25,065 nt of DNA from an uncultured Ramlibacter sp. (GCA_964519795.1 CAZFKW010000004.1:1-25065), one strand, 5' to 3'. Positions 765 to 20,532 are shown, counted from the stretch's first letter. The notes: generated by a model from the letters alone, not told the origin. A program made the numbers and translations.

Positions 765-1160
765 CTAAATCGCGACCAGTTGCCGTTCGGGCACGCGCTG
801 CGCAAACAGGGGCAGCAGCGCATTGATGCGCTTGCGAGCCTCGACCTGGCCGCGTTCCTGGGCAACACACTGGAAGAGATCCGCGCGCAGGAGCCACAAT
901 TCAAGGCCTTCGCGGCAGCGGTAGATGGAGAGCGTCATGCGGTCACGGACAGCCACCGGACAATCATGCAGGACGGCCGCCATTTCTTTCTTGATCAGCC
1001 ATTCGGGGGCGGGCGAATCCGGCCTGACCGCTGTATCGGCGGATGTGACGCCACGGTGGCGGAACTCCTCGCGCAGGAGGCTGCTGTCGAAGGGCTGCGT
1101 CGGGGCGCCAAACCTGCAGATGTCCCGCAACCACCGGGTAAAGGATGACGGTGAAACCAT
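765..1160 (-). CDS. Hypothetical protein (131 aa)
   Basis: The ORF track starts at 1343, but ATG 1160 has a perfect AGGAGG 7 nt upstream. The C-terminal half (LWLLRADLFQCVAQERGQVEARKRINALLPLF) looks like a helical protein. No family assigned. Confidence 0.7.
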   Translation of the reverse strand: MVSPSSFTRWLRDICRFGAPTQPFDSSLLREEFRHRGVTSADTAVRPDSPAPEWLIKKEMAAVLHDCPVAVRDRMTLSIYRCREGLELWLLRADLFQCVAQERGQVEARKRINALLPLFAQRVPERQLVAI

Positions 1161-1246
1161 GACTGAACCTCCTGCGCCGGGTGAATGAATCGGCTGGGAG
1201 ACAGTTTGTGCCCCACAGGAGTCTTGTTCAATCGGCCAGATCGCCC

Positions 1247-1260
1247 CAGCCATATGGCTG
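1247..1260. promoter_or_regulatory. Perfect 14-bp palindrome CAGCCATATGGCTG in a divergent intergenic region
   Basis: Read directly from the sequence, between the hypothetical gene start (1160) and the MmgE/PrpD start (1397). Confidence 0.3.
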
Positions 1261-1396
1261 AGAGTAGTTTCCCGGACTTGCCGCCAGGCCTCGGCTGCTC
1301 CCCTGGAATCATCCCGAACAACGCAGCGTTGCCTTTTTTTCATACTTCCTGAGACGCATCGCCCCTACATTGGGTGCAGACTTACAAAGAGACAAG

Positions 1397-4898: not shown

Positions 4899-4930
4899 CC
4901 CCTTTGAACAACCATCCCTGCACAGAACAC

Positions 4931-6079
4931 ATGAATTTCAATCTTTCTCCCGAACAGGCCGAATTCCAGACCGCAGTGCGGCGCTTTGCCGAAAAGCACC
5001 TCAAGGCAGGCGCGCTGGCGCGCGCCCACTCCGATGACTACCCGCGCGACGTGGCGCAGTTGATGGCGGCGCAGGGCCTGCTGGGCATCACCATTGCCGA
5101 GGCCGACGGCGGCCAGGGCGGCAGCCTGATGGATGCCGTCATCGCGATCGAGACCATCGCCTCCGTCTGTCCGCGCAGTGCGGATGTGGTGCAGGCCGGC
5201 AACTTTGGCGCCATTCGCGTACTGGCCGAATACGGCAGCGCGCACCAGAAGGAAAATTACCTCAGGCCCCTGCTTGCCGGGAAGACGCTGATTGCCGTCG
5301 GCATGACCGAGCCGGGCGCAGGTTCCGCCGTCACCGAGCTTGTCACCGCAGCCACGCCCGATGGCGACGGATTCCGCATCAATGGCAGCAAGATATTCAC
5401 CACCCATGGCCCGCACGCCGACGTGTTCCTGACCTATGTGCGCTTCGGCCCCGGCGTCAGGGGCATTGGCTCGGTGCTCATCGAGACCGCCATGGAAGGC
5501 GTCACGCTGGGCAAACGCTCGCGCTTCACCTCGGGGGAGGAATGGGTGGAAATCTTCTTCAACAACGTGTTCGTGCCGAAAGAGATGGTCGTGCTGGGCG
5601 AAGGCGGTTTCAAGAAGCAGATCGCAGGCTTCAACGTCGAGCGGCTGGGCAACACCGCCCGCTCGCTTGCGCTGGGTCGCTATGCGTATGAAGAGGCGCG
5701 CCAGTGGGCGCTCCAGCGCAGGCAGTTCGGGCGCCTGCTGTGCGAATTCCAGGGCCTGCAATGGAAGTTTGCCGACATGCGCATCAAGCTGGACGCGGCG
5801 CAGTTGCTGCTGTACCGCGCAGCCACCAACGCCGACACCGGCTTTCCATCGCCCACGGAGACGGCCATTGCCAAGGCCTATTGCAACCAGACCGGCTTTG
5901 ATGTGGCCAACGATGCCATGCAGGTGCTCGGCGGCATGGGATACAGCCAGGAGTCGCTGGTGGAGTACTGCATGCGCCGCTGCCGCGGCTGGATGATTGC
6001 CGGCGGCTCCATCGAGATCCTGAAGAACCGGATCGCCGAAGCGGTGTTTGAACGGACTTTTTCACAGCGGCCGGACTGA
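4931..6079 (+). CDS. Acyl-CoA dehydrogenase family protein
   Basis: MTEPGAGS, NGSKIFTT, RRQFG, FQGLQWKFADM, QVLGGMGY. Start ATG 4931. Confidence 0.95.
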   Translation: MNFNLSPEQAEFQTAVRRFAEKHLKAGALARAHSDDYPRDVAQLMAAQGLLGITIAEADGGQGGSLMDAVIAIETIASVCPRSADVVQAGNFGAIRVLAEYGSAHQKENYLRPLLAGKTLIAVGMTEPGAGSAVTELVTAATPDGDGFRINGSKIFTTHGPHADVFLTYVRFGPGVRGIGSVLIETAMEGVTLGKRSRFTSGEEWVEIFFNNVFVPKEMVVLGEGGFKKQIAGFNVERLGNTARSLALGRYAYEEARQWALQRRQFGRLLCEFQGLQWKFADMRIKLDAAQLLLYRAATNADTGFPSPTETAIAKAYCNQTGFDVANDAMQVLGGMGYSQESLVEYCMRRCRGWMIAGGSIEILKNRIAEAVFERTFSQRPD

Positions 6080-6693: not shown

Positions 6694-7803
6694 TCAGGCG
6701 CTCTTGATGATGGTGTCCTGCGATGGAAGGCCTGCGCTCGTCTCGCCCCGGATGTACTGGTGCGGCACTGTCACCTTCGCGCCCAGCGTCTCTGCGGCAT
6801 GCCAGGCCCAGCGGGGATCGTTGAGGAAGCCGCGGCCGAGCGCGACAAGGTCGGCATCGCCACGCTCGACGATGGCCTGCGCATGCGCCGGATCACGGAT
6901 CAGGCCCACGCACATCGTTGCGACATCGGCCTCGCGCCGGACCTGCGCCGCATAGGGCACCTGGTAGCCGGGGCCAAGCGGTATCTCGGCGCGGGCGCTG
7001 CCGCCGGACGACAGGTCCATATAGTCGATGCCGCGTGCCTTCAGTTCGCGCGCAAACGCGACAGCATCATCGCCGGTGAGGCCGCCTTCGAGCCAGTCGG
7101 TGCCATTGAAGCGCACGCCCATCGGCTTGTGGGCGGGCCATGCGGCGCGCACGGCCTCGATCACCTCCAGCGGGTAGCGCATGCGGCCCTCGCGGTTGCC
7201 GCCGTACTCGTCGGTGCGCGCATTGCCAAGCGGTGACAGGAAGGAGCTGAGCAGATAGCCATGGGCGGCGTGGATTTCAAGCAGGTCAAGGCCCAGCCGG
7301 TCGGCGCGCCGCGTAGCCTTGACGAACGCATCCCGCACACGCTCGAGGCCGGCGCGGTCCAGGGCCTGAGGGGCTTCCCAGCCCGGGCCGAACGCGATGT
7401 CCGTGGGGCCGAAGGTCTTCCAGCCGCCTTCGGCCAATGGCAGGTTGCCGCGGCCGGCGCCGGGCGCGCGCACTGATGCCTTGCGCCCCGCATGGCCGAG
7501 CTGGATGCCGATCGGCATGCTCGCAAACGGCCGGACGAATGCGAGCACGCGTGCCAGCGCGGCTTCGTTTTCATCGGACCACAGGCCCAGGCATTCGGCC
7601 GTGATGCGGCCCTCGGGCTCGACGCCTGTAGCCTCGATCACCAGCAAGCCGGCGCCCGATACAGCGTACTGGCCCAGGTGGATCACGTGCCAGTCGGTGG
7701 CATTGCCGTTTACGGCGCTGTACTGGCACATGGGAGACACCACGATGCGGTTGGGCAGCGTGAGATCGCGCAATTTGAAGGTCTGGAACAGGGCGCTCGG
7801 CAT
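6694..7803 (-). CDS. NADH:flavin oxidoreductase, Old Yellow Enzyme family (YqjM/NamA-like)
   Basis: NRIVVSPMCQYSA, QLGHAGRKAS, EIHAAHGYLLSSFLSP, NARTDEYGG and ALGRGFLNDPRW. Start moved to ATG 7803. Confidence 0.95.
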   Translation of the reverse strand: MPSALFQTFKLRDLTLPNRIVVSPMCQYSAVNGNATDWHVIHLGQYAVSGAGLLVIEATGVEPEGRITAECLGLWSDENEAALARVLAFVRPFASMPIGIQLGHAGRKASVRAPGAGRGNLPLAEGGWKTFGPTDIAFGPGWEAPQALDRAGLERVRDAFVKATRRADRLGLDLLEIHAAHGYLLSSFLSPLGNARTDEYGGNREGRMRYPLEVIEAVRAAWPAHKPMGVRFNGTDWLEGGLTGDDAVAFARELKARGIDYMDLSSGGSARAEIPLGPGYQVPYAAQVRREADVATMCVGLIRDPAHAQAIVERGDADLVALGRGFLNDPRWAWHAAETLGAKVTVPHQYIRGETSAGLPSQDTIIKSA

Positions 7804-7935: not shown

Positions 7936-8826
7936 ATGCTGTGCGGACAGGAGACATGCCTTGACTCATTCCATACCCCAAACCGCCGCGCCAATGCGCA
8001 GAGCAGCACGCCCATCACAAGGTACCCTGCGTACAACGCTGCGATTGTTGCCCACGCCGCCCGGGTGCTCGGGCCGGGTGTTGAAGTCGTGGTACGCGGC
8101 ACCTTGCGCCCGACCTTCGGCAAGTACACACGCGCCGCATTCTTCCTCAAGAGCAGCGACATGATGGACTCCATCGTCGCCGCGGCTGATGAAGGGTTTG
8201 ACGGCGTGGGGATTGGCTGCTTCCTCGACCCGATCCTGCATGAACTGCGCGAGATCCTGGATATCCCGGTCATGGGCCTGGCCGAAGCCGGCATGCATAT
8301 GGCCTGCATGCTCGGCCAGCGCTTTGCCATCCTGTCGCACTCCGAGGCGCTCAACGTCAAGGTCTATGACAGCCTGGCCGACAAGTACGGCCTTCGCGCC
8401 CGCATGAGCGGGATGCTTGCGGTGGACCTTCCCATGGACGCCCTCGAAACGGCCATTACCGGAGACCCGGCGCCAGCCATTGCCCTGATAACCGACGCAG
8501 CGAAGCGGCTCGTGGACCAGGGGGCCGAAGTGATCGTGCCGGGCTGCGGGCTGCTCAACCTCCTGTGTGTCCAGCAAGGCCTCAGCCAGGTCGCCGGCGC
8601 CACTGTGCTTGACGTGACCGGCGCACTGCTCAAGACAACCGAGACAATGATCACGCTGCGGCGGGTATCTGGCACCGGCGTGAGCCGCACCGGCTACTAT
8701 GCGCGCCCGGCCGAGGCTGATGTGCGCAAGACGCTCGCTTCGTTCGGCCGCGGCAAGGTGGGGGGAACCGAGGCCGCCCCGGCGTCCCGTGCTGCATCCA
8801 CGCCCGGACCAAAGGCGATGGCATGA
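7936..8826 (+). CDS. Asp/Glu/hydantoin racemase family protein (5' end uncertain, possibly damaged)
   Basis: Two-Cys motifs GIGCFLDP and VPGCGLL, plus LREILDIPVMGLAE. Recognisable family sequence begins at about 7999 (QSSTPI). In-frame ATGs only at 7885 and 7936, both without a good RBS. Confidence 0.8.
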   Translation: MLCGQETCLDSFHTPNRRANAQSSTPITRYPAYNAAIVAHAARVLGPGVEVVVRGTLRPTFGKYTRAAFFLKSSDMMDSIVAAADEGFDGVGIGCFLDPILHELREILDIPVMGLAEAGMHMACMLGQRFAILSHSEALNVKVYDSLADKYGLRARMSGMLAVDLPMDALETAITGDPAPAIALITDAAKRLVDQGAEVIVPGCGLLNLLCVQQGLSQVAGATVLDVTGALLKTTETMITLRRVSGTGVSRTGYYARPAEADVRKTLASFGRGKVGGTEAAPASRAASTPGPKAMA

Positions 8827-9992
8827 GCATCAAGGGACAGGCCTTTATCGCAGGCGCCTTCGAGCACCCGACCCGCCACGCCCCGGACAAGTCCGTCGCC
8901 CAGCTCCACGCCGAATGCGCGCGCGGCGCGCTGGCCGATGCCGGGCTGGACAAGAATGACATCGACGGCTACTTCTGCGCCGGCGACGCGCCCGGGCTTG
9001 GCGCCTCGTCCATGGCAGATTACATGAACCTGCGGCTGCGCCACATCGACAACACGGACACTGGCGGCAGCTCCTACCTGATCCATGTGGCGCATGCGGC
9101 GCAGGCGATCGCGGCAGGCAAATGCAATGTCGCGCTGATCACGCTGGCAGGCAGGCCGCGCAGCGAGGGCATGGCTACAGGAACGGCACCGCGCCCCGGC
9201 AACCCGAACCAGCCCGACCTGGAGTGGGAGCTGCCCTACGCACCGGCGACAGTCAACATGTATGCCATGGCTGCGATGCGGCACATGCACGAGTTCGGCA
9301 CAACGAGTGAACAGCTGGCATGGGTCAAGGTAGCCGCCTCGCATCATGCCCAACACAACCCGAACGCCATGCTGCGGGACGTGCTCACCGTTGACCAGGT
9401 GGTCGCCTCGCCCATGGTGGCCGACCCCTTGCACCGGCTCGACTGCTGCGTGATCAGCGACGGTGGCGGAGCACTGCTGGTAGTCAGGCCGGAGATTGCG
9501 AGGAGCCTCAAGCGGCCCCTGGTCCGGGTGCTGGGCGCCGGGGAAGCCATCAAGGGGCAGTTCGGCGGTGACGTGGATCTCACCTATTCCGGCGCGGCAT
9601 GGTCGGGACCGGCAGCGTTCAGCGAGGCCGGCGTGACACCACAGGACATCCAGTACGCATCGATCTACGACAGCTTCACCATCACGGTTCTGATGCAGCT
9701 GGAAGACCTGGGCTTCTGCAGGAAGGGCGAAGGCGGCCGCTTCGTGGCCGACGGCAACCTCATCTCCGGCACTGGCCGCCTGCCCGTCAACACTGATGGC
9801 GGCGGCCTGTGCAACAACCATCCGGGCAACCGTGGCGGCATGACCAAGGTGATCGAGGCGGTGCGCCAGTTGCGGGGAGAAGCCCATGCGGCTGTGCAGG
9901 TACCCAACTGCGCACTGGCACTCGCCCAGGGAACCGGCGGCTCGCTGGGCACGCGCCACGGCAGTGCCACCCTGATCATGGAAAGGGTCTGA
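8823..9992 (+). CDS. Thiolase-fold protein, SCP-x/Ltp2-like, lacking the nucleophilic Cys
   Basis: DTGGSS in place of the CxS motif, plus LDCCVISDGG, IYDSFT, NTDGGGL and EAVRQLRG. ATGA overlap with the racemase stop. Confidence 0.92.
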   Translation: MSIKGQAFIAGAFEHPTRHAPDKSVAQLHAECARGALADAGLDKNDIDGYFCAGDAPGLGASSMADYMNLRLRHIDNTDTGGSSYLIHVAHAAQAIAAGKCNVALITLAGRPRSEGMATGTAPRPGNPNQPDLEWELPYAPATVNMYAMAAMRHMHEFGTTSEQLAWVKVAASHHAQHNPNAMLRDVLTVDQVVASPMVADPLHRLDCCVISDGGGALLVVRPEIARSLKRPLVRVLGAGEAIKGQFGGDVDLTYSGAAWSGPAAFSEAGVTPQDIQYASIYDSFTITVLMQLEDLGFCRKGEGGRFVADGNLISGTGRLPVNTDGGGLCNNHPGNRGGMTKVIEAVRQLRGEAHAAVQVPNCALALAQGTGGSLGTRHGSATLIMERV

Positions 9993-9993
9993 C

Positions 9994-10404
9994 ATGGAAG
10001 GCAACATTCCCCTGGAAGAGCCGGCGCGCACCATCGCGGCCATCACGCGCCAGCCCGGCATGCAGCGCTTTCAGGACGCTGCCGAACAAGGTGTGTTCCT
10101 GATTCCCCGCTGCAAGGGCTGCGGCCGGCACCACTGGTACCCCCGCCTGCTGTGCCCGTTCTGCTTCAGCGACGACATTGACTGGCAGTCAGCCACCGGC
10201 AACGGCACGGTCTACAGCTGGACGGTCATGCGCCGGGCAAAGCCTGCGTATGCGATCGCCTATGTCCGGATGGACGAAGGTCCCGTGGTGATGACGAACA
10301 TCGTGGGCTGTGATCTGGATTCAATCAGCATCGGCATGAGGGTACGCGCCGTGTTCCAGCCCGCTTCCAACGGGCCGCTCGTGCCGATGTTCAAACCCGC
10401 CTGA
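9994..10404 (+). CDS. DUF35 family Zn-ribbon/OB-fold protein (thiolase partner)
   Basis: CKGC..YPRLLCPFC zinc ribbon, G.GTVYSWTV, and EGPVVMTNIV..IGMRVRAVF. Starts 1 nt after the thiolase stop. Confidence 0.93.
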   Translation: MEGNIPLEEPARTIAAITRQPGMQRFQDAAEQGVFLIPRCKGCGRHHWYPRLLCPFCFSDDIDWQSATGNGTVYSWTVMRRAKPAYAIAYVRMDEGPVVMTNIVGCDLDSISIGMRVRAVFQPASNGPLVPMFKPA

Positions 10405-10434: not shown

Positions 10435-11418
10435 TCAGGCCAGCGCGCCCGCCTGGCGCTGGAACTGCTCCACGTGGCTGAAGTATTCACGCATGGTGGC
10501 GACGGCACCGCCGGGATCACGGGCACGCAGGCGTGCGACCATCTGCCTGCGCAACGGTGTCAGCTCCGGCTGGTGCATCGAGGCATAAGGCATCACGTCC
10601 GCCTGGGCAGTGACCGTATGGTGCATCAGCGTCCCCAGCGTGTTCGCCACCAGCGCGAGCACGTCGTTGTGGGCTGCGCGGGTGATCAGCGCAAAGTAGT
10701 CCAGGGCGGCCAGTGCCCGCGCGGCCATGTCGCCGCGTTCAGTCTTGGCATCCATTTCGGCCAGGTGCTGATCCATGGCATCAAAGTCCGCTTCCTCACC
10801 ACGCTCACAGGCCAGTTGCAGCAGCAACTCATAGACCCCGGCACGTGCCTCGATCAGCGACTTCAGGGGCAGCTTGCCCTGCGACGCCAGGTCGCGCAAT
10901 GACTGCGCCAGCATCATGTAGGCGCCCTTGTAGAACACCAGCGGGTCCTGCTCGCGCCCGTGCTCGAACCGCTCGACCTTGCCAATGAAGATCACGTGGT
11001 CGCCGGCCTCATGCTGCGCAAATGTCGTGCAGTGAAACCGGGCCACGCAGTCATCAATCAGTGGCATGCCGCCAAATCCCTCGCTGTGCCCGACGCCTTC
11101 AAACTTGTCGGCAATGGCACCGCTGGCAAAGCGTGCGGACAGCTTGCTCTGGTCCTCCGCCAGCACGTTGATGGCGAATCCGCTGCCGCTGCGGAACGCC
11201 TCCATCGACTTGCTCGCATTGCGCAGGCTCCACAGCACCAGCGGCGGGTCCAGGGACACCGAGCTGAACGAGTTGCAGGTCAGGCCTACGGGCTTGCCAT
11301 CAGGCCCGCGCGTCGTGATGATCGCCACGCCGGTCGGAAAGGTTCCCAGCGCCCGGCGGAACCCGGCTGCGTCAAATGGCGGCGTGCCGGTGTGATGGGC
11401 GTCGGGACGTTCAGTCAT
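10435..11418 (-). CDS. Flavin reductase (HpaC/RutF-like) fused to a C-terminal FCD (GntR ligand-binding)-like domain
   Basis: N-terminal half: FRRALGTFPTGV, GLTCNSFSSVSLDPPLVLWS, AGDHVIFIG, PLVFYKGAY. C-terminal half is helical (IEARAGVYELLLQLACER...ITRAAHNDVL...AVATMREYF). ATG 11418 has AAGGAG upstream. Confidence 0.85.
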   Translation of the reverse strand: MTERPDAHHTGTPPFDAAGFRRALGTFPTGVAIITTRGPDGKPVGLTCNSFSSVSLDPPLVLWSLRNASKSMEAFRSGSGFAINVLAEDQSKLSARFASGAIADKFEGVGHSEGFGGMPLIDDCVARFHCTTFAQHEAGDHVIFIGKVERFEHGREQDPLVFYKGAYMMLAQSLRDLASQGKLPLKSLIEARAGVYELLLQLACERGEEADFDAMDQHLAEMDAKTERGDMAARALAALDYFALITRAAHNDVLALVANTLGTLMHHTVTAQADVMPYASMHQPELTPLRRQMVARLRARDPGGAVATMREYFSHVEQFQRQAGALA

Positions 11419-11464
11419 GTATGTCTCCTTGCGGGGCCTTGCAGCACCCTTGCCTGCATCTGCT

Positions 11465-11842
11465 TCAACCGGCGCGGGGGGCACGGCGGAACATCTGCAC
11501 AATATTGCCTTCGGGATCCCGCATCGACAGCACGGCGCCATGGCTGCCCATGTCGCGGATACCGGTGACTTCCCCGCCCGCCTGCCTGACCGATGCCTCG
11601 ATGCCGTCGAAGTCCTCAACCTCAAACACCAGCACGGCGCCCGATTGCGCCGGGCTGGCCTCTTCCAGGCAGGCCAGCGAAAAGCCGGTGACCGCGCCGT
11701 CGCCCGTCGTGTACTGGACCCAGCGATCCGCGTCACGGAACTTCAGGGGCAGGCCCAGCACCGACTCGTAGAAGGCCGACTGCGCAGCCACGTCGCGCGC
11801 TGCCAGGTAGACGTTCTGCAGTTTCCTTACTTTCGCAGTCAT
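11465..11842 (-). CDS. VOC (glyoxalase/bleomycin resistance) family protein
   Basis: AFYESVLGL, LVFEVEDFD and RDPEGNIVQM. ATGA overlap with the MaoC gene stop. Confidence 0.88.
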   Translation of the reverse strand: MTAKVRKLQNVYLAARDVAAQSAFYESVLGLPLKFRDADRWVQYTTGDGAVTGFSLACLEEASPAQSGAVLVFEVEDFDGIEASVRQAGGEVTGIRDMGSHGAVLSMRDPEGNIVQMFRRAPRAG

Positions 11843-12723
11843 GACATCTCCTCCTGCTGCGCCATCCGGGCATGCCCGTGGGACAGGACTTCAACATTTC
11901 GTTCCTTGCACAAGGCGCGAAACACGATTCCGCCTTCGTCACGCCACATATGGGTGACCAGGGTCTCCCCCGGATACATGGGAGCCGCGAAGCGCGCGCC
12001 GATGGCGCCAATCACCAGGGGCGCAAAGCGCTCTTCCATCATTCGCGCTGCAAGGCCGAACGACAGCAGGCCATGGGAGATCGGCCGCTCGAATCCGGCG
12101 ACACGCGCCACCCCGGGATCGGCGTGAAGCAGGTTGTAGTCGCCGTTGAGGCGATACAGCAGTGCCGCCTGCGGGCGGGTTGGCAGTTCCGCAATCTCAT
12201 CCGGCGCCCGTTCAGGGACTGCAGGCGCGCGCGGGGCAGGGGCCGCAGGCGCTGTCGCCTGTGCCGCACCGCCGTCAAAACCGCCATTGCGCCGGCAGAA
12301 TGTCGAACCGGCAATGGTTGCCAACAACTCGCCTGAGGCGGTGTCGTGCAACTGCCGCTCCGTCTGTATGACCGCTCCCTTGCCTTCGCCCTTGTCGAGC
12401 ACGGCCACCACGCGGTTGCGCGAGCGGACTGTACCTTCGGCAGGCAACTGCCGGTGCAACACCAGCCGTTGTTCGCCATGCACCACACCCTTGCGATCCA
12501 CGCCTGTGGCAGGGTTGGCCGTCCAGGGGCCGGGGTGCGCAAGCACCAGCGCCATGGTGGGAAAGGGGCGCAGCCCGTCCTCCAGCACATGGCGCAACTG
12601 GCGCGGATCCACCGGGTCATCGCCAAAGCCGAGGCTGAGCGCATACAGCTGCGTGTCGCGCACGGTATAGCGCTGCACGACCTCGTCAAACGGCCAGTTG
12701 AGCAGGGTGTCGCGATTGATCAT
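11839..12723 (-). CDS. MaoC double-hotdog dehydratase, hydratase-2 (R-specific) type
   Basis: LYALSLG, VVHGEQ, hydratase-2 motif YRLNGDYNLLHADP, PISHGL and PMYPGETL. Start ATG 12723. Confidence 0.93.
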   Translation of the reverse strand: MINRDTLLNWPFDEVVQRYTVRDTQLYALSLGFGDDPVDPRQLRHVLEDGLRPFPTMALVLAHPGPWTANPATGVDRKGVVHGEQRLVLHRQLPAEGTVRSRNRVVAVLDKGEGKGAVIQTERQLHDTASGELLATIAGSTFCRRNGGFDGGAAQATAPAAPAPRAPAVPERAPDEIAELPTRPQAALLYRLNGDYNLLHADPGVARVAGFERPISHGLLSFGLAARMMEERFAPLVIGAIGARFAAPMYPGETLVTHMWRDEGGIVFRALCKERNVEVLSHGHARMAQQEEMS

Positions 12724-12736
12724 GCGCAGCGCCCGC

Positions 12737-13687
12737 TCACTGCGCCTGCCATGGGAACACGTCGCGGGTGCGCTCCAGCGGAACAAAGGACTTCGCCCAT
12801 CCTTCGCCGACCTGCTCGCGCAGGCGATCCATGTTCCAGCCCTCGCTGTTCTGGAGAATCCGCACCGGCCGCGGCTGGCTGTACAGGTACAACTCGTTTC
12901 CGCGAACGCCGATGATCTGGCCGGAGATGTGTCTGGCATCATCGCTGAGCAGGTAGGCCACAACCGGCGCAATCTGCTCCGGCCGGGTGCGGGCACGGCG
13001 TGCTTCCAGATTCTTCGCCTGCTGTTCGGGCGTTGCACCGGGGACGGACTCGATCATGCGGCTGAAGGCACTGGGCGCAACGCAGTTGGATCGCACATTG
13101 AAGCGCGCCATCTCCAGCGACAGCGAGCGCGACATGCCGACGATGCCCATCTTGGCCGCCGCATAGTTGGCCTGCCCGATGCTGCCGATCAGGCCCGAGG
13201 TGGAGGTCATGTGCACAAAAGCGCCGCTCTCCTGCCTGCGGAAGATTTCGGCAGCGGCCCTGCTGACGTAGAAACTGCCCATCAGGTGAACCTTGATGAC
13301 CGCCTCGAAGTCTTCCGGTGCCATCTGGTGGAATATCTTGTCGCGAAGGATGCCGGCGTTGTTGACCACATAGTCCAGCCGGCCAAAGGTCTCCACAGCC
13401 AGCGAGACGATGCTGCGCGCGGATTCCCATTCCGACACGCTGGCGGTACTGGCAACCGCATTGCCGCCAAGGGCCTTGATCTCGCGCACGAGTTCCTCCG
13501 CCGGACCGGTATCTTCGCCCTTGCCGTCCAGGGACACGCCCACGTCGTTGATCACCACACTCGCGCCCTGCTTCACAAGGTACAGGGCGATCTCCCGGCC
13601 GATCCCACGGCCCGAACCGGTGACCACTGCCACCTTGCCATTCATGCCTTGCGCAAGTCCCGCGTCATTTGTCTGTTGCTCTGACAT
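12737..13687 (-). CDS. SDR oxidoreductase resembling the 3-hydroxyacyl-CoA dehydrogenase domain of MFE-2/HSD17B4
   Basis: VTGSGRGIG, VINDVG, NNAGILRD, VHL.GSF, TSTSGLIG, QANYAAAK. ATG 13687 has GGAGA upstream. Confidence 0.92.
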   Translation of the reverse strand: MSEQQTNDAGLAQGMNGKVAVVTGSGRGIGREIALYLVKQGASVVINDVGVSLDGKGEDTGPAEELVREIKALGGNAVASTASVSEWESARSIVSLAVETFGRLDYVVNNAGILRDKIFHQMAPEDFEAVIKVHLMGSFYVSRAAAEIFRRQESGAFVHMTSTSGLIGSIGQANYAAAKMGIVGMSRSLSLEMARFNVRSNCVAPSAFSRMIESVPGATPEQQAKNLEARRARTRPEQIAPVVAYLLSDDARHISGQIIGVRGNELYLYSQPRPVRILQNSEGWNMDRLREQVGEGWAKSFVPLERTRDVFPWQAQ

Positions 13688-13734
13688 CTGCCTGTCTCCA
13701 TTCTGGTAAATAAAAGTAGCCGGGGTCTGCGCCG

Positions 13735-14313
13735 TCAATCCATGACGGCTCTTGCAGCTTGCCGCAACGCCGGACCGGGCTTCGGGGCGCCATCCCCGGC
13801 ACCGGCCTGCCGGTACCTTCGCACCACGCCGGTGAACATCACACGCCCCTGCGCGTCGGTCACGCCCTGGGGCCAGTTCTCGCATTCGAAGGTCGCCCTG
13901 GCGGCCTCCAGCAGGGGCGCTCCGCCCAGGCCGAACTCAAAGGCCAGTGCCGCAAACCTGTCCCGGCCCTGACCCGAAAAGTTGCGAGTCACATTGCCAT
14001 CCACATCTTCCAGGACAAGGTTGAGCGAGACATGCGTTGCGTGCGTGAAAACCTCAAGCCCGGGTGTATCGCCAGGCAGCATCCAGACCAGCGACGGCAT
14101 GGAGGCGCCGGACAGAACCGGCATCCTGCAGCAGCAGGCGCCGACCAGGCTGCCATCCGCACCCTGCGCAGTGGCAACAGCGACCCACTGACCGGTTTGC
14201 CCGAGCGCAAGCGCCATACCGGAGGCGCCGCTCCTGTCGGCGACCCAGTGGCTTGTCATGCCCGGCATCTCGGGCTGTTGTTCGCGCATCGGCGATGGCG
14301 CCCGTGGTGTCAT
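13735..14313 (-). CDS. Divergent flavin-reductase-like (split-barrel) protein
   Basis: The pattern ALG..VAVAT..G..VG..SLVWML..F..A..LNLV..F..DRF..G.PLL..A.ATFEC..F.G.V aligns by eye with flavin reductases, but the key motifs are altered. ATGA overlap with the crotonase stop. Confidence 0.7.
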   Translation of the reverse strand: MTPRAPSPMREQQPEMPGMTSHWVADRSGASGMALALGQTGQWVAVATAQGADGSLVGACCCRMPVLSGASMPSLVWMLPGDTPGLEVFTHATHVSLNLVLEDVDGNVTRNFSGQGRDRFAALAFEFGLGGAPLLEAARATFECENWPQGVTDAQGRVMFTGVVRRYRQAGAGDGAPKPGPALRQAARAVMD

Positions 14314-15107
14314 GTCGGGCTCACCGGCGAAGTCTCAACCCAGGCCGGCGGCCGCTTCGCGCGGAAGGCAGCCATGCCTTCGGCAGCTTCGGCCGTCTTC
14401 ATCGACTCCACCGCAAGTTGCGACGCCAGGCCGATGGCCGCGTCAAACGGCAAACCCCAGGCACTGTCCAGCAATTGCCGGGTCTGTTTCAGGGCCAGCG
14501 GGCCCGCCTTGACGAGACTGACGGCCAGGCCTTCGACATGGGACTCAAGATCCGGTGGGGCGCAGACCTGCTGGACCAGGCCGATGGACAGCGCCTCTGC
14601 AGCGCCAACACTGCGCCCGGTCAGGCACAGGCCCAGCGCAGCGCGCCGCCCGATGGCCTGCATCAGGGAAACAGCCGTGAAAGATGGCGCAATGCCGGCA
14701 CGCGCCTCGGGGATGGAAAAGGAGGCGGCATCCGAGGCGATGGCCATGTCACACCAGCTGGCCAGCGCCACGCCAAGTCCCAGCGCCTTGCCTTCAATGA
14801 CGGCCACCGCTGGAACCGCGCAATGGCGTACAGCATGTGCGAGCCGCACGGCCGGCTGGATGCGCCGGGCGAGCGCGGCATCGTCCTCCCCTTCGTCGGC
14901 ATCAAGCTCGCCCAGGTCGCGGCCGGAGCAGAAGACACCGTGCCGGCCACGCACAAGCACGGCGCGCGCGCCCTGCCTGCCGGCCTCTTCCATGGCGACC
15001 GAGAGCGCAGCGAGCATGGAGTCGTTCAGCGCGTTGCGGCGCGCCGGGTTGTCAATCCAGCAGGTCACGATGCCACGCGCATCGCGCTGGATGTCGAGCA
15101 TCGTCAC
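14310..15107 (-). CDS. Enoyl-CoA hydratase/isomerase (crotonase) family protein
   Basis: RRNALN, FCSGRDL, ALGLG, SIPEARAGIAP, EALSIGLV and EGMAAFRAKRPP. GTG 15107 overlaps the upstream stop (alternative ATG 15101). Confidence 0.93.
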   Translation of the reverse strand: MTMLDIQRDARGIVTCWIDNPARRNALNDSMLAALSVAMEEAGRQGARAVLVRGRHGVFCSGRDLGELDADEGEDDAALARRIQPAVRLAHAVRHCAVPAVAVIEGKALGLGVALASWCDMAIASDAASFSIPEARAGIAPSFTAVSLMQAIGRRAALGLCLTGRSVGAAEALSIGLVQQVCAPPDLESHVEGLAVSLVKAGPLALKQTRQLLDSAWGLPFDAAIGLASQLAVESMKTAEAAEGMAAFRAKRPPAWVETSPVSPT

Positions 15108-16330
15108 ACAACGCCCCTGGCGCGCAGATCGTCAATGGCCGCCTGCCCGAAGCCGGCCTCCTGCAGCACTTCCTGCGAATGCTCTCCCAGGCGCGGCGGA
15201 TGGCGCCCCGAAACGTTCGCGCCCTCGCCCACCTTGAAGGGCGAGCCCAGCAGGCGCGTGGAGCGGCCATCGCCCTTGGCGACCTCGACCACCATGTGGT
15301 TGGCCAGTGACTGCCTGTGCATCAGCGCCTGGTCTATCGTATGCAGCGGCGCTATCGGCACGCCATGTTCTTCGAGCCGGGCCATCCACCAGGCAACGGT
15401 ATTGCTGCCGAAAATCCTGATGAACTCCTGCACGACCTCTTCCCGGCGCGCAAGCCGCCCCGCGTTGGTCGCCAGACCCTCGTCGTTGCCCAGGTCCGGG
15501 CGGTCAACCGCACGGCAGAGCTTGCGCCAAGTGCCGTCGTTCAACGCGCCGGTGAGGACTTCGCCATCCGTGCACCTGAATGCCTGGTAAGGCACCAGGT
15601 GCCACAGGCCCGAGCCTTCGCGGCGGGGCATGGCGCCCGCTTCAAGCCAGCCGACACCGTGGTAACCCAGCAGCGACACCGCCGTCTCCAGCAGCGATAC
15701 CCGCACCGTATTGCCCGCATGCGTCTTCTCGCGCCCCATGAGCGCGGTAAGAACGCCGCAATAGGCCAGGATCCCGGTCGTCATGTCGACAAAGGAAACA
15801 CCTGACCGTATCGGGCCGCCGTCGCGCTCGCCCGTGATCGACATGATCCCGGAGAACGCCTGCAGCAAGGCGTCATACCCCGGCCGGTCGGCAAGATCTC
15901 CATGCGCCCCGAAGGCCGAGATCGTGCTCACCACAAGGCGCGGATGCCGCGCCCTCAGGGCCGCCTCGTCGATCCCGAGGCTTTGCGCAGTACCCGGCAG
16001 GAAGCTGTGGAGCAGCACATCGGCCTGCTCCAGCAGCTTGTCGAGTACGTCGCGCCCCTCCTGCATCTTGAGGTTGATCGTGATGCCGCGCTTGCCACGG
16101 TTCACGCTCATGAAGTTGCAGCTCTCGCCCGTGTCCGTCATGGGCGCCCACTGGCGGTTCTCGTCGCCGGTCGGTGCCTCGATCTTGATCACATCGGCAC
16201 CCATGTCGGCCAGCATCTGGCCACACAATGGACCCGCCAGCACCCGGCTCAGGTCTATGACGCGGATGCCATCGAGCGGGCGCGCGGCGGCTGCAGCGGC
16301 CGCTGCATTCCCGGGAGCCTGGGCGCTCAT
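15104..16330 (-). CDS. Family III CoA-transferase (CaiB/BaiF)
   Basis: LDGIRVIDLSRVLAGP, LADMGADVIKIE, NRGKRGI, GYD, and a catalytic Asp in SFVDMTTG. ATG 16330 overlaps the LLM stop. Confidence 0.95.
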   Translation of the reverse strand: MSAQAPGNAAAAAAAARPLDGIRVIDLSRVLAGPLCGQMLADMGADVIKIEAPTGDENRQWAPMTDTGESCNFMSVNRGKRGITINLKMQEGRDVLDKLLEQADVLLHSFLPGTAQSLGIDEAALRARHPRLVVSTISAFGAHGDLADRPGYDALLQAFSGIMSITGERDGGPIRSGVSFVDMTTGILAYCGVLTALMGREKTHAGNTVRVSLLETAVSLLGYHGVGWLEAGAMPRREGSGLWHLVPYQAFRCTDGEVLTGALNDGTWRKLCRAVDRPDLGNDEGLATNAGRLARREEVVQEFIRIFGSNTVAWWMARLEEHGVPIAPLHTIDQALMHRQSLANHMVVEVAKGDGRSTRLLGSPFKVGEGANVSGRHPPRLGEHSQEVLQEAGFGQAAIDDLRARGVV

Positions 16331-17418
16331 ACAGCTTCCGCAGCGACAGGCACGGCGGCCACGTGTGGCTTGTCGTTGGCGATCTCCTTCTGCACTGCCG
16401 GAATGATCACCTTGTTCCACAACTCAAGCTGCCTGAGCATCAGCTGGTGGTCAAAGTCGCCCACCTGCGTCTGCAGGGCCACATGCACGGGGCGCACGGC
16501 CCGGATGTCCGCCACAAGCCGCTCGACCACCGTATCCACCGAGCCGACGGGCAGGTTCTTCATGAGCTTGTCCCAGGGCAGCTCTTCGTCATAGGGCTTT
16601 TCCATGACAAGGTAATCGTCCTCGACGGACTCGGTGCGCTGCTTCAGGCTCACGGCAATGCGTTGCTGATACCGGGCGCAGTCCACATAGTGCTCGACCT
16701 CCGCCTTGTTGTCGCTCGCAAATGCAAAGCGCAGCAGGCCGACTTTTGCCTTCGCCGGGTCCTTGCCCTCGGCGACTGCCAGCTCGTCAATGACACCGCG
16801 GAACCCGCCCAGCCGCTTGGTGCCGCCCAGCCCACCGGAGATGAACACGTGCTGGTCGCGGCGCAATGCATGACGCATCAGCATCGGGTCGCCGCTGGCG
16901 ATCCAGACCGGCGGCATCGGTGTCTGCACCGGACGCACGCTGATGGCGGTCATCGGCTGCTTGAAGTGCTTGCCGTCGTAGCTGAACTTCTTCTGCGCCA
17001 TGGCCAGCTCGATCATGTCGAGCATCTCCAGCGTCTTTTCCTTGGCGTTCTCCAGCGTGATGCCAAAACGCTCGAACTCGAACTGCTGGTATCCGCCGCC
17101 AACGCCAACGTTCAGCCGGCCACCCGAGAGCTGGTCAGCCATGGCGATCTCGGCGATCAGCCGGGCAGGCGTATACAAGGGTGCCACAACCACGGCCGAT
17201 CCAAGCCGGATCTTTTCAGTGACGCCGGCGCAGTACGCAGCCATCATCAGCGGAGAAGGGCAAAGACCATAGTTTGAGAAGTGATGCTCTGCATACCAGG
17301 CCGCTGCAAAGCCATTGCGGTCAGCCACCTGCGTCTGCTCGACGGCCTCTTGTATGATTTGACCGGAGGACTTCTTCTGGTTCCTCTGCTGCATCAAGAT
17401 GAAAATTCCGAAGTCCAT
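16327..17418 (-). CDS. Luciferase-like (LLM) flavin-dependent monooxygenase
   Basis: MDFGIF, WYAEHHF, CPSP, TEKIRLGSAV, AEIAMADQLSGGRLNVGVGGGY, P.Q.P.PPVW. AAGGA RBS. Confidence 0.93.
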   Translation of the reverse strand: MDFGIFILMQQRNQKKSSGQIIQEAVEQTQVADRNGFAAAWYAEHHFSNYGLCPSPLMMAAYCAGVTEKIRLGSAVVVAPLYTPARLIAEIAMADQLSGGRLNVGVGGGYQQFEFERFGITLENAKEKTLEMLDMIELAMAQKKFSYDGKHFKQPMTAISVRPVQTPMPPVWIASGDPMLMRHALRRDQHVFISGGLGGTKRLGGFRGVIDELAVAEGKDPAKAKVGLLRFAFASDNKAEVEHYVDCARYQQRIAVSLKQRTESVEDDYLVMEKPYDEELPWDKLMKNLPVGSVDTVVERLVADIRAVRPVHVALQTQVGDFDHQLMLRQLELWNKVIIPAVQKEIANDKPHVAAVPVAAEAV

Positions 17419-17550: not shown

Positions 17551-17565
17551 TTGCAATATCTGAAA
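17551..17565. promoter_or_regulatory. Candidate LysR recognition site TTGCA-N5-TGAAA
   Basis: Interrupted dyad containing T-N11-A. It overlaps the lysR start codon and is centred about 65 bp upstream of the predicted LLM start site. Confidence 0.6.
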
Positions 17566-18494
17566 TGAAGGCACTCGACACCATCCGGATCTTCGTGATC
17601 ACCCTGCAGACCGGAAGCCTTTCGGCGGCAGGCCGCAGCCTGGGTCTGTCACCCGCCACCATCTCGCGGCGCATCAGTGCGCTGGAAGAGGAACTGGGCG
17701 TACAGTTGCTGGACCGCACCAGCCGCAAGCTCACCGCGACGGATTCGGGCGTGATCTTCCAGCAGAGGGCCGAGGCCATCCTGGAAGACATGGCGCAGGC
17801 GGAGAACGCCGCGCGCCACGCCAAGGCCGCACCGGAGGGCCGCCTGCGCGTGCATTCACGCACACTGGTGGGCATCCAGCTGATCGCGCCATTGCTGCAC
17901 CGGTTCTCCGCCCGCTATCCCGAGCTGACCATTGACCTCCACCTGTCGGAGGAGCCCGTCAACCTGGTCGAGCAGAACTATGACGTGGACTTGCGGATCG
18001 GCAAGCTGGAGGATTCTTCTTATGTCATGCGCAAGCTTGGCACCGGGGAGCGGGTACTTGTCGCCAGCCCCGCCTATGTCGAAGCCCATCCCCCGGTCAA
18101 GGTGCCGGAGGACCTGGAAAGCGGCCACAACTGCCTGACCTACCGCAAGGCGCAGGAGCCCACGTTCTGGCGCTACCTGCATGGCGACCGCGTGCGCGAA
18201 CTCAAGATCAGCGGCACCGTGCATGCCAACAACGGCGAAGTCCTGCGCCGGGCGGCGTTGAGCGGCCTGGGCCTCGCGCTGCTCGCAGACTGGTCGGTCA
18301 ACGAAGACATCCGGGCCGGCCGACTCGTGCGGCTGCTGCCGGGCTACCGCCTGACAAACTCCACCTTTGACAACGGCGTGTACGCGCTGTTCCGGCACAC
18401 ACGGATGCTGCCGCAGGTTCGGGTATTCGTGGACTTTCTTGCCGACGCGCTGGGCGAGGTGGAAGCCGCAACGGACCCTGGCAGGCCCGGGTGA
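17565..18494 (+). CDS. LysR-type regulator (CrgA/DmlR-like), divergent from the LLM operon
   Basis: GSLSAAGRSLG.SPATISRRISALEEELGVQLLDRTSR HTH, P.G.LRV, and NNGEVLR.AAL.GLG. Confidence 0.96.
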   Translation: MKALDTIRIFVITLQTGSLSAAGRSLGLSPATISRRISALEEELGVQLLDRTSRKLTATDSGVIFQQRAEAILEDMAQAENAARHAKAAPEGRLRVHSRTLVGIQLIAPLLHRFSARYPELTIDLHLSEEPVNLVEQNYDVDLRIGKLEDSSYVMRKLGTGERVLVASPAYVEAHPPVKVPEDLESGHNCLTYRKAQEPTFWRYLHGDRVRELKISGTVHANNGEVLRRAALSGLGLALLADWSVNEDIRAGRLVRLLPGYRLTNSTFDNGVYALFRHTRMLPQVRVFVDFLADALGEVEAATDPGRPG

Positions 18495-18649
18495 CCGGGC
18501 ACTGCCTGATTTTTCAAAGCTTCTTTTCCTTTCCGTCACAGTCAGCCAGCCCGTGTGTGCCTAAGATGGCCGCACGGCAAGCCGCCAGATCCGGCAGCTT
18601 GCCCGGACCGGCACGATCCGGAACTGCGAACACGGAGACAAGACAAGAC

Positions 18650-19516
18650 ATGGCCATGATGCCACCCACTTCCAGCAACGCGCGCGGACCCACGCCGGTT
18701 TCCGCGCCGGCTTTCGCGGACGGTTGCCTGGAAGGCCGTGTGGCGGTCGTTACCGGGGCCGGTGGCGGCCTGGGCGGATCGATTGCAGCGCGACTCGCTG
18801 CCATGGGTGCGTCTGTGGTGCTTGCCGACCTGGATGCACCTTCAGGACTACCCTCCTCCCGCTGCATGGCCATCGCATGCAACATCGCAGATGCCGATGC
18901 GGTGGATGCCATGGGCCTTGAAGTGGAGAAGCGCTACGGCCGGTGCGACATCCTGGTCAACAATGCCGGCACCAAGGCCATTCCCGTATCACTGGAAGAT
19001 CTTCCTGTCGCCGACTGGGACAAGGTATTCAGCGTCAACGTGCGCGGCGCCTTCCTGTGCGCGAGGGTCGTGGCAAGAATGATGCTCGCCCGCGGATCGG
19101 GCTCCATCATCAACATTGCCTCCATCGGTGCGCAGATGCCCACGCGCATTGGTGGCTACGGACCCAGCAAGGCCGCCCTCATCGGGCTGACACGCCAGAT
19201 GGCCGTCGAATGGGGGCCACGCGGCATCCGGGCCAATTCGGTCAGCCCCGGCCTGGTCAGGACGCCGATGTCCGAAGCCTTCTACAGCGACGTTCAACAG
19301 CACGACCTGCGCGTCGCCATGCTTCCGGCCCGCCGGATCGGCGTGCCGGAAGACATCGCAAGCGTCGTGGCCTTCCTGGCCACCGATGCCGCCGCCTTCG
19401 TGACCGGCCAGGACATCGTCGTCGATGGCGGCTACACCATTGCACCCCTGTTCAACGCACAACCCCAGTCCGCAGCTGCGGCCTATGCGCGCGGCGCGGG
19501 CGCGCCGAAAAACTGA
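18650..19516 (+). CDS. Classical SDR oxidoreductase (probably NAD-preferring)
   Basis: VTGAGGGLG, VLAD (Asp after beta-2), NNAG, NIAS, YGPSK, NSVSPG, FVTGQDIVVDGG. ATG 18650 has GGAGA upstream. Confidence 0.93.
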   Translation: MAMMPPTSSNARGPTPVSAPAFADGCLEGRVAVVTGAGGGLGGSIAARLAAMGASVVLADLDAPSGLPSSRCMAIACNIADADAVDAMGLEVEKRYGRCDILVNNAGTKAIPVSLEDLPVADWDKVFSVNVRGAFLCARVVARMMLARGSGSIINIASIGAQMPTRIGGYGPSKAALIGLTRQMAVEWGPRGIRANSVSPGLVRTPMSEAFYSDVQQHDLRVAMLPARRIGVPEDIASVVAFLATDAAAFVTGQDIVVDGGYTIAPLFNAQPQSAAAAYARGAGAPKN

Positions 19517-19563
19517 CGCAGAGCAACCTTCACTTCACACACCAACCCTATGGAGACAACCCC

Positions 19564-20532
19564 ATGAAATTTCCCCGCTTGCTGATGGCCGTCCTGGCCG
19601 GCGCCATGAGCCTTTCCGCGAATGCGCAACAACCCATCGTTTTCACCAAGCCGATCACGCTGGTCGTGCCTTTCTCGCCTGGAGGTTCGACCGACCCGGC
19701 TGCCCGCGTGATCGCCCCGCGCCTGGCCAGGGAGCTCGGCCAGCCGGTGGTGGTCGAGAACAAGCCCGGTGCCGCAGGAGCCCTGGGGACCGCTTACGTG
19801 GCACGCTCCGCGCCGGACGGCTACACCGTCCTGCTCAATACCAACGTGGTCGCCATCCTTCCGCACACGCAGAAGAATCCCGGCTTCGACATGCGCACCG
19901 ACATCGTGCCGGTGATGTTGATGGCGTCGGGCCCATTCACGCTGGCCGTCAACCCGGCACTGCCGGTCAACTCGGTGCAGGAACTCCTTGCCTACAGCAA
20001 GGCGAACCCCACCAAGCTGTTCTATGGCACCTCGGGCCCGGGCTCCACCCTTCACCTGCTGACCGAACTGCTGAAGAAGTCCTCAGGCCTGCAGATGACG
20101 CACGTGCCATACAAGGGCAATGGCCCTGTGGTGACAGCACTCATCGGCGGCGAGATCCAGGCTGCCTTCGATACCGTTCCCGGCTCCAAGGCCATGGCCG
20201 ACGCCGGCCGGGTGCGGCTTCTGGCCGTGACCAGCGCCGAGCGCCACAGGTTGCTGCCCAACGTTCCCACACTGGCTGAGTCCGGCATCAAGGGCTTCGA
20301 GGCAGAGACCTCGGTCGGCATCTTCCTGCCCAAGGGCGCGTCGGATGCCATGGTGCAGCGCTACTACCAGGCGCTGGTCAAGGTGATGAATGACGACGAC
20401 GTCAAGGCCAGGCTCAACGATATCGCCTTCCGCATTGTGGCCTCCACGCCGGAACAGTTCAGGAACCGCCTGGACGCGGAGTCCCGGCAGTGGGCCGAGG
20501 TCACGAAGAGTGCAGGCATCAAGCCGGAGTAA
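19564..20532 (+). CDS. Bug/TctC family periplasmic substrate-binding protein
   Basis: Signal peptide, PITLVVPFSPGGSTD, QPVVVENKPGAAG, APDGYT, HVPYKGNGP and PNVPTLAESG. GGAGA RBS. Confidence 0.96.
   Translation: MKFPRLLMAVLAGAMSLSANAQQPIVFTKPITLVVPFSPGGSTDPAARVIAPRLARELGQPVVVENKPGAAGALGTAYVARSAPDGYTVLLNTNVVAILPHTQKNPGFDMRTDIVPVMLMASGPFTLAVNPALPVNSVQELLAYSKANPTKLFYGTSGPGSTLHLLTELLKKSSGLQMTHVPYKGNGPVVTALIGGEIQAAFDTVPGSKAMADAGRVRLLAVTSAERHRLLPNVPTLAESGIKGFEAETSVGIFLPKGASDAMVQRYYQALVKVMNDDDVKARLNDIAFRIVASTPEQFRNRLDAESRQWAEVTKSAGIKPE

Follow-up and report, generated by a model that had tools for sequence, protein, structure and literature searches.

What does a luciferase-like monooxygenase (LLM) oxidise when its gene heads an operon of coenzyme A (CoA) enzymes? 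The question is raised by a locus in an uncultured Ramlibacter sp. (GCA_964519795.1, CAZFKW010000004.1:1-25065). The stretch analysed, hereafter the window, covers positions 1 to 25,065 on a contig of 30.5 kb from a 76%-complete metagenome-assembled genome (MAG), and carries eight genes, numbered here from the LLM (gene 1) to a flavin reductase (gene 8). LLM and reductase form a two-component system inside CoA-dependent catabolism under a LysR regulator. As to what this system does, we favour, with confidence and doubt about evenly balanced, a catabolic operon under LysR control that serves an imported organic acid and in which the LLM, probably as a Baeyer-Villiger enzyme, acts on a keto-acid that is then activated with CoA and passed to a modified beta-oxidation.

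The preliminary description of this DNA had proposed an eight-gene operon with four 4-nt start/stop overlaps and short gaps elsewhere, and this architecture was recovered throughout. Eight open reading frames (ORFs) run head to tail on the minus strand from 17418 to 10435; the overlaps are ATGA at 16330-16327, GTGA at 15107-15104, ATGA at 14313-14310 and ATGA at 11842-11839, and the remaining three junctions measure 47, 13 and 46 nt. Two of the four overlaps hinge on start choice, the crotonase (gene 3) having an alternative ATG at 15101 and gene 4 an alternative ATG further downstream. A terminator scan of the operon returned three terminator-like sites, none convincing, against 4.6 +/- 2.2 in shuffled sequences. 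The nearest genomes found were those of Hydrogenophaga palleronii NBRC 102513 and of an uncultured Hydrogenophaga, with LLMs 92-93% identical to that of the window. Two Hydrogenophaga genomes hold the identical eight genes in identical order, and pairwise comparison with them gave dN/dS values of 0.04-0.23 over all eight genes, lowest for the LLM (0.04-0.05) and highest for gene 4 (0.23), as expected under purifying selection. Given the overlaps, the shared order, the low dN/dS and the lack of a convincing terminator, the eight genes are real and constrained, and an operon is the reasonable reading of them. The domain content likewise agrees with what was first noted, an LLM at the head and a genuine flavin reductase at the tail. 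The functional unit nevertheless extends past 10435-17418, as a divergent set of a LysR regulator, a second short-chain dehydrogenase/reductase (SDR2) and a TctC-type binding protein (17565-20532) is conserved with the LLM family in other genera.

The LLM itself aligns over residues 1-303 to positions 1-306 of the 314 in PF00296, and we assign it to the luciferase-like monooxygenase superfamily as a putative member of the two-component, FMNH2-dependent class. A profile of its family matched several solved structures over the full length: 8cbb (E 4.6e-46), 7bip (RslO1), 8k74 and 1brl (Vibrio harveyi LuxA), with 8k74, a reported poly(acrylic acid) monooxygenase, reaching an E of only 3e-32. Enzymes of the SsuD, RutA and DszA types fell to 1e-6 or worse. 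The AlphaFold model of the protein (pLDDT 84.5, pTM 0.85) gave the same picture in Foldseek, with TM-scores of 0.78-0.80 to the LuxA-type TIM barrels 8cbb, 2i7g, 7bip and 3fgc at about 20-24% identity in structural alignment. The LLM is thus placed in the LuxA clade, and its nearest solved relatives are luciferases. It is not a bacterial luciferase proper, as it scored 87.9 bits against the NCBIfam luciferase-alpha model NF052254, whose cut-off is 600, and no lux family (luxB, luxCDE) was matched among the window genes scanned. No other NCBIfam cut-off was reached, the best subfamily models lying well below threshold.

Two known systems help to define this position. Homodimeric LuxA of Enhygromyxa salina (PDB 8cbb; bioRxiv 10.1101/2023.02.27.530324), like other LuxA proteins, shares with the window LLM the Pfam family, the TIM barrel and a conserved EHHF segment, and LuxA also receives its FMNH2 from a separate reductase; it differs in the low identity given above and in genomic context, which in the window is catabolic (LysR, CoA enzymes). 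The diketocamphane monooxygenases of the camphor pathway of Pseudomonas putida, served by the reductase Fred (PDB 4uwm; PMC6352141), offer a functional parallel. There an LLM and a flavin reductase begin the pathway by inserting oxygen into a ketone and so opening it, as is proposed for the window, and CoA esters follow; a ketone-capable SDR is co-conserved in the window family. The window differs in that its reductase is operon-encoded and fused to an FCD domain, and in that activation falls to a family III CoA-transferase. The sequence match is also weak and N-terminal: 3,6-diketocamphane monooxygenase (4uwm), a type II Baeyer-Villiger monooxygenase (BVMO), aligned at E 1e-11 over residues 16-110 only, with a TM-score of 0.73. 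The two enzymes would accordingly appear to belong to a common superfamily and to different subfamilies.

The family to which the window LLM belongs is large. Among the first 600 pattern matches in species-representative genomes, at least 575 were confirmed as relatives, and the family is found in Hydrogenophaga, Variovorax, Bradyrhizobium, Bordetella, Achromobacter, Cupriavidus, Advenella and many alphaproteobacteria. Generic names are all that the 120 top database relatives listed (54-95% identity) bear, the Protein Atlas labels for the LLM are equally generic, and the open-access literature yielded nothing on the combination of genes seen in the window. The preliminary description had held that its claim of new enzyme chemistry would fall if the LLM clustered with a characterised enzyme of matching operon; no such enzyme or operon was matched.

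Evidence for a role in CoA-dependent catabolism comes from the neighbourhoods of these relatives. We collected 80 loci around LLM relatives from species-representative genomes and mapped the window proteins to them by tblastn; 55 of them have full flanks of at least 8 kb on each side. As the loci are phylogenetically related, the counts are descriptive and do not amount to a statistical test. A divergent lysR adjoins the LLM gene in 70 of the 80. Among the full-flank loci, 54 encode LysR, 51 a crotonase, 47 an acyl-CoA dehydrogenase (ACAD), 42 a CoA-activating enzyme and 53 at least one CoA enzyme. In random 20-kb segments of the window's genome, by comparison, an enoyl-CoA hydratase/crotonase (ECH), an ACAD or a CoA-transferase occurs in about 10%, and an NDP-forming synthetase or a reductase in about 1%. 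The link between the LLM and CoA-ester metabolism that had been claimed from the window is thus borne out, and it is conserved across many genera rather than local. Of the 80 loci, 60 encode a flavin-reductase domain, and the 20 that do not include several short contigs; in 25 the reductase and FCD domains form a contiguous fusion. TctC genes are found in 65, but the background is high, with 71 copies in the window's genome. Gene order recurs across beta- and alphaproteobacterial genera, and SDR2 orthologues (55-58% identity) adjoin the LLM, a VOC protein and the reductase in genera other than that of the window. Beside lysR, 53 of the 80 loci also carry a gene of the SMP-30/gluconolactonase family (relatives L021-L095, e.g., L093:7866-8942). 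No locus with a CoA-transferase immediately after the LLM, the window among them, has this gene, and its only counterparts in the genomes of the window, H. palleronii and Pigmentiphaga are paralogues of 25-32% identity.

These loci fall into three layouts, distributed over the two main clades of an LLM tree built with FastTree. Layout A, that of the window, consists of LLM, CoA-transferase and crotonase; it is also found in Orrella, Pigmentiphaga, Enterovirga, Mesorhizobium, a Hyphomicrobiales MAG and a betaproteobacterial MAG, and occupies three separate branches of clade 1. In the Enterovirga version (L041:4412-5422), genes for an Ldh_2-family oxidoreductase, an SDR, an MFS transporter and a GNAT acetyltransferase come after those for the LLM, the CoA-transferase and two crotonases. 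Layout B, found in Variovorax and its neighbours within clade 1, has, in this order, the LLM, reductase-FCD, a PimC/PimD-like ACAD pair, a crotonase, an NDP-forming synthetase, an SDR and a VOC protein. Layout C corresponds to clade 2 (Bradyrhizobium, Bordetella, Achromobacter, Cupriavidus, Advenella, Acetobacteraceae and Rhodobacterales), where an upstream SDR-SDR-ACAD-ACAD-synthetase-crotonase operon is followed by lysR and then by a divergent LLM and short reductase. The two commonest layouts, B and C, have in common an orthologous crotonase (65-72% identity) and the SMP-30 gene beside lysR; layout A lacks the SMP-30 gene, the NDP-forming synthetase and the PimCD-like pair, and has the CoA-transferase instead. 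VOC, SDR2 and reductase-FCD accompany the LLM in layouts A and B, and in several layout C loci that encode a second LLM paralogue. In five loci with two LLM paralogues (L063, L071, L087, L094 and L078), the second is followed by SDR2 (55-58%), VOC (58-62%) and reductase-FCD (47-51%), so that a single reductase gene stands beside two oxygenase genes. No second LLM of this family was found in the window's own genome.

The CoA enzymes of the operon bear on the nature of the substrate. The CoA-transferase (gene 2) covers positions 1-366 of the 366 in PF02515 and contains a GYD...QA..SG motif; it reached no NCBIfam equivalog cut-off. Its best solved relatives are the formyl-CoA-transferase-like 10uh, human succinate-hydroxymethylglutarate CoA-transferase (SUGCT; 9br7) and YfdE (4hl6), all at 1e-66 to 1e-73, and it is nearest to the dicarboxylate transferases (SUGCT/YfdE-like). 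We also considered an alpha-methylacyl-CoA racemase, which with MFE-2 and an SCPx-like thiolase would make a peroxisome-like branched-chain set, and rejected it, the racemase 2g04 matching at only 6e-21. The similarity to dicarboxylate transferases, together with the TctC receptor, suggests that the substrate is a carboxylate.

Gene 3 is of the crotonase fold, and in the window protein and all its orthologues the position of the first catalytic glutamate is occupied by alanine, while the glutamate of the PE motif is retained. The Variovorax/Bordetella-type crotonase has glycine at the same position and likewise keeps the PE glutamate, so that both crotonase types linked to the LLM family are without the first glutamate (gene 3 of the window; L025:14357-15115; L093:7045-7812). 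We take the roles of the two catalytic glutamates to be those in rat enoyl-CoA hydratase. Judged by these residues, gene 3 would not encode a canonical two-Glu enoyl-CoA hydratase. The adjacent SDR (gene 5) and hydratase 2 (gene 6) resemble peroxisomal multifunctional enzyme 2 (MFE-2), whose hydratase-2 N-terminal and MaoC domains recur in gene 6, although in the window the functions are split over two genes. Hydratase 2 retains the Asp and His of its GDYNLLH motif, and the best NCBIfam match of the SDR, NF005861, scored 265 bits, below the cut-off. The adjacency of an SDR and an MFE-2-like hydratase 2 implies (R)-3-hydroxyacyl-CoA intermediates. This split pair is confined to the cluster as it occurs in Hydrogenophaga and Orrella.

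The reductase (gene 8) is closest, in its N-terminal domain, to the C1 reductase of p-hydroxyphenylacetate 3-hydroxylase from Acinetobacter baumannii (5zc2, E 4e-36), and its Flavin_Reduct domain was recognised at E 1.1e-44. Both proteins place a C-terminal domain of the ligand-sensor type after the flavin reductase. In C1 that domain is MarR-like, whereas in the window it is FCD (PF07729; GntR/FadR-type), and the NCBIfam C1-type model was matched only at positions 5-158 of 309. The partner enzymes differ as well, HpaB with an ACAD fold for C1 and an LLM in the window. A paralogue of the reductase-FCD fusion (48%) lies on contig C89 of the window's genome, where genes for a family III CoA-transferase (37%) and a TctC protein are close by (about 6792-7658 and 8740-10030).

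The reading that we favour joins these elements as follows. Gene 8 would reduce FMN with NAD(P)H, and the LLM would use FMNH2 and O2 to generate a flavin C4a-peroxide, with which it would attack the substrate at a carbonyl group. LuxA-clade enzymes direct a nucleophilic flavin peroxide at carbonyl groups. Because of this chemistry, the lactonase family found in most relatives and the co-conserved, ketone-capable SDR, the likeliest reaction would be Baeyer-Villiger insertion of oxygen into a keto-acid, whose keto group may be made by SDR2. Among the reaction types put forward in the preliminary description, Baeyer-Villiger oxidation has thus gained ground, with the LuxA clade and the 53 lactonase loci on its side, and heteroatom oxidation gained no support. 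The CoA-transferase would next activate the oxygenated acid, probably from succinyl-CoA, and the single-Glu crotonase, hydratase 2 and MFE-2-type dehydrogenase would carry out a modified beta-oxidation. More speculatively, the crotonase might open a beta-acyloxy (lactone) thioester by elimination, yielding an enoyl-CoA for hydratase 2 and the MFE-2-type SDR; such an opening would explain how layout A manages without a lactonase and an in-operon ACAD. The cycloalkanone pathways provide a comparable sequence of steps (ChnB/CpnB, a lactone hydrolase, then PimCD-type beta-oxidation of a dicarboxylate), to which the lactonase-family gene, PimC/PimD-like pair, crotonase and SDRs of the relatives correspond. 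They differ in employing single-component, FAD-dependent type I BVMOs and alpha/beta-hydrolase lactonases, and the window is without the lactonase and the ACAD pair.

Several points weigh against this reading. We found no biochemistry for any member of the LLM family in the open-access literature, and similarity to the solved type II BVMO 4uwm is confined to the N-terminal match described above. The window and the other loci with LLM, CoA-transferase and crotonase are without the lactonase, their genomes holding only the distant paralogues noted above, so that the lactone argument is borrowed from relatives; SMP-30-family proteins, moreover, are not all lactonases. Finally, TctC, SDR, ECH and ACAD genes are abundant and the loci are not independent, and the raw counts overstate the case for this reason.

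The coordinates of the operon and of the divergent genes are collected in Table 1.

Table 1. Genes of the LLM operon and of the divergent set beside it, with the domain evidence for each.
Feature	Gene	Coordinates	Strand	Evidence
LuxA-like LLM, 363 aa	1	16330..17418	-	PF00296 full-length, E 1.2e-58
Family III CoA-transferase, 408 aa	2	15107..16330	-	PF02515 full-length, E 1.7e-118; ATGA overlap with LLM stop
Single-Glu crotonase-fold enzyme, 265 aa	3	14313..15107	-	PF00378, E 2.2e-44
Degenerate flavin-reductase-like protein, 192 aa	4	13738..14313	-	PF01613, 26.3 bits vs 27-bit cut-off
MFE-2-type SDR, 316 aa	5	12740..13687	-	adh_short + adh_short_C2
Double hot-dog (R)-specific enoyl-CoA hydratase (hydratase 2), 294 aa	6	11842..12723	-	MFE-2_hydrat-2_N + MaoC_dehydratas
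Small VOC (glyoxalase-fold) protein, 125 aa	7	11468..11842	-	PF00903, E 4.6e-9
NAD(P)H:flavin reductase-FCD fusion, 327 aa	8	10438..11418	-	Flavin_Reduct residues 25-168, FCD residues 188-313
LysR-type regulator, divergent from LLM		17565..18494	+	HTH_1 + LysR_substrate
Second SDR (SDR2), 3' of lysR		18650..19516	+	adh_short_C2, E 2.2e-61
TctC/Bug-type periplasmic carboxylate-binding protein		19564..20532	+	PF03401, E 3.4e-70

Gene 4 was found only in two Hydrogenophaga loci (L016 and L017, 61-64% identity), and in Orrella and Pigmentiphaga the operon lacks it; it is the fastest-evolving of the eight, yet constrained. It is thus a Hydrogenophaga-only addition that stands outside the conserved core. 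The VOC protein is present in 26 of the 80 loci, with 57-65% identity in those of the Variovorax type. It had no close relative among solved structures, its four weak matches being led by Rv0577 (5e-6), and we rejected a role as methylmalonyl-CoA epimerase since no epimerase was among them. The TctC protein was likewise uninformative as a pointer to the substrate, its best solved relative, 5oei, lying barely ahead of Bug27 and BugD.

On the far side lies a plus-strand cluster convergent with the operon, with genes for a PrpD-family protein, an NDP-forming acyl-CoA synthetase, an ACAD, a DUF3237 protein, a racemase-family protein and a thiolase-like/DUF35 pair; amid it, on the opposite strand, lies a gene for a flavoenzyme of the old yellow enzyme family. 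The ACAD (4904-6076) has 3-sulfinopropionyl-CoA desulfinase (5af7) as its best solved match and, as in 5af7, AGG replaces the YEG base motif; it bears glutamate at the helix-G position of the isovaleryl-CoA dehydrogenase (IVD) type and aspartate where the desulfinase has Arg84. By these residues it is probably a dehydrogenase. A 192-aa ORF at 768-1343 (minus strand) had no Pfam match at E 0.01.

How directly the LLM touches the CoA esters is the point on which the alternatives diverge first. The preliminary description had suggested that it might act on a CoA ester itself, and the enzyme could in that case oxygenate a CoA thioester downstream of the CoA-transferase, with an OTEMO-like function, known from the camphor pathway, on an LLM scaffold; no earlier LLM would have had an acyl-CoA substrate. 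The ATGA overlap between the LLM stop and the CoA-transferase start, the retention of LLM, CoA-transferase and crotonase in several lineages, the near-universal presence of CoA enzymes as neighbours and the FCD domain on the reductase all speak for it; the FCD fold is named after the acyl-CoA-binding domain of FadR. However, orthologous LLMs are paired with different activation systems, most relatives transcribe the LLM apart from the CoA operon, beside lactonase, LysR and TctC, and in gene order the transferase comes after the LLM. We know of no LLM with a CoA substrate. We consider this alternative unlikely, if worth keeping in view. Action on the free acid before CoA activation is slightly favoured, because orthologous LLMs pair with two activation systems and stand outside the CoA operon in layouts B and C. 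A combined reading, in which the LLM of layout A has a CoA thioester as its product or substrate and the single-Glu crotonase uses beta-elimination rather than hydrolysis to open a Baeyer-Villiger lactone, and so replaces the lactonase and ACAD of the sister clusters, seems to us rather unlikely as a whole.

Other alternatives alter the chemistry itself. As the nearest solved relatives are true luciferases, the LLM might be a dark luciferase that converts an aldehyde to an acid, the aldehyde arising, for instance, from retro-aldol cleavage by the cysteine-less thiolase/DUF35 pair and the (di)carboxylate passing to the CoA-transferase. No aldehyde dehydrogenase family was matched among the window genes scanned, and hydratase 2 and the thiolase-like/DUF35 pair lie nearby, both of which would suit such a route. 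The pair, however, accompanies the LLM only in Hydrogenophaga, aldehyde oxidation at the cost of NADH would be wasteful in catabolism, and the lactonase association of the relatives would go unexplained, and we therefore hold this improbable. Still less probable, in our view, is a role for the LLM in heteroatom oxidation or C-S bond cleavage on a thioether or sulfonate carboxylate, after which the CoA-transferase and crotonase would eliminate the sulfur group as in mercaptopropionate/thiodipropionate metabolism. LLMs are prominent in organosulfur metabolism generally, and the resemblance of the neighbouring ACAD to 5af7 points the same way; but the LLM belongs to the LuxA clade rather than to that of SsuD, SfnG and DszA (E 1e-6 or worse), no thiol-dioxygenase family was matched among the window genes scanned, and the ACAD lacks the desulfinase Arg84 and bears a glutamate at the IVD base position. 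A proteomics paper on thiodipropionate in Variovorax TBEA6 mentions no LLM, monooxygenase or lactonase. With an LLM of a non-sulfonate clade, an ACAD only superficially like 5af7 and that LLM-free paper, we set the thiodipropionate/sulfinopropionate pathway aside. It is also conceivable that the genes are adjacent without a common pathway, the LLM/reductase pair and the CoA enzymes serving unrelated substrates. Genes for CoA enzymes, SDRs and TctC are very abundant in these genomes and layouts vary between lineages, which speaks for such an arrangement. Against this stand the four start/stop overlaps, the identical order in three Hydrogenophaga genomes, the recurrence of the LLM, CoA-transferase and crotonase triad in alpha- and betaproteobacteria, and the frequency of ECH and ACAD, found in 85-93% of loci where the background is about 10%; mere adjacency would in our judgement be a most improbable outcome.

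The operon is of a familiar type, catabolic and led by a two-component flavin monooxygenase, with the FCD-fused reductase as a variant feature, and the locus, while a testable target for enzyme discovery, holds no surprise for the specialist. It is directly testable because the cultured H. palleronii NBRC 102513 shares all eight genes and their order, its LLM being 92% identical. Type II Baeyer-Villiger enzymes are rare and useful in biocatalysis, and the LLM family could add a second well-defined group of these two-component enzymes. Were the CoA-thioester reading with its eliminative crotonase true, the system would be the first acyl-CoA-linked LLM and would reveal a new ring-opening role for a crotonase. 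The LLM subfamily is large and has no studied member. Its partners are strongly conserved (LysR, flavin reductase and CoA enzymes) and often include a lactonase; identification of the substrate would annotate hundreds of gene clusters at once.

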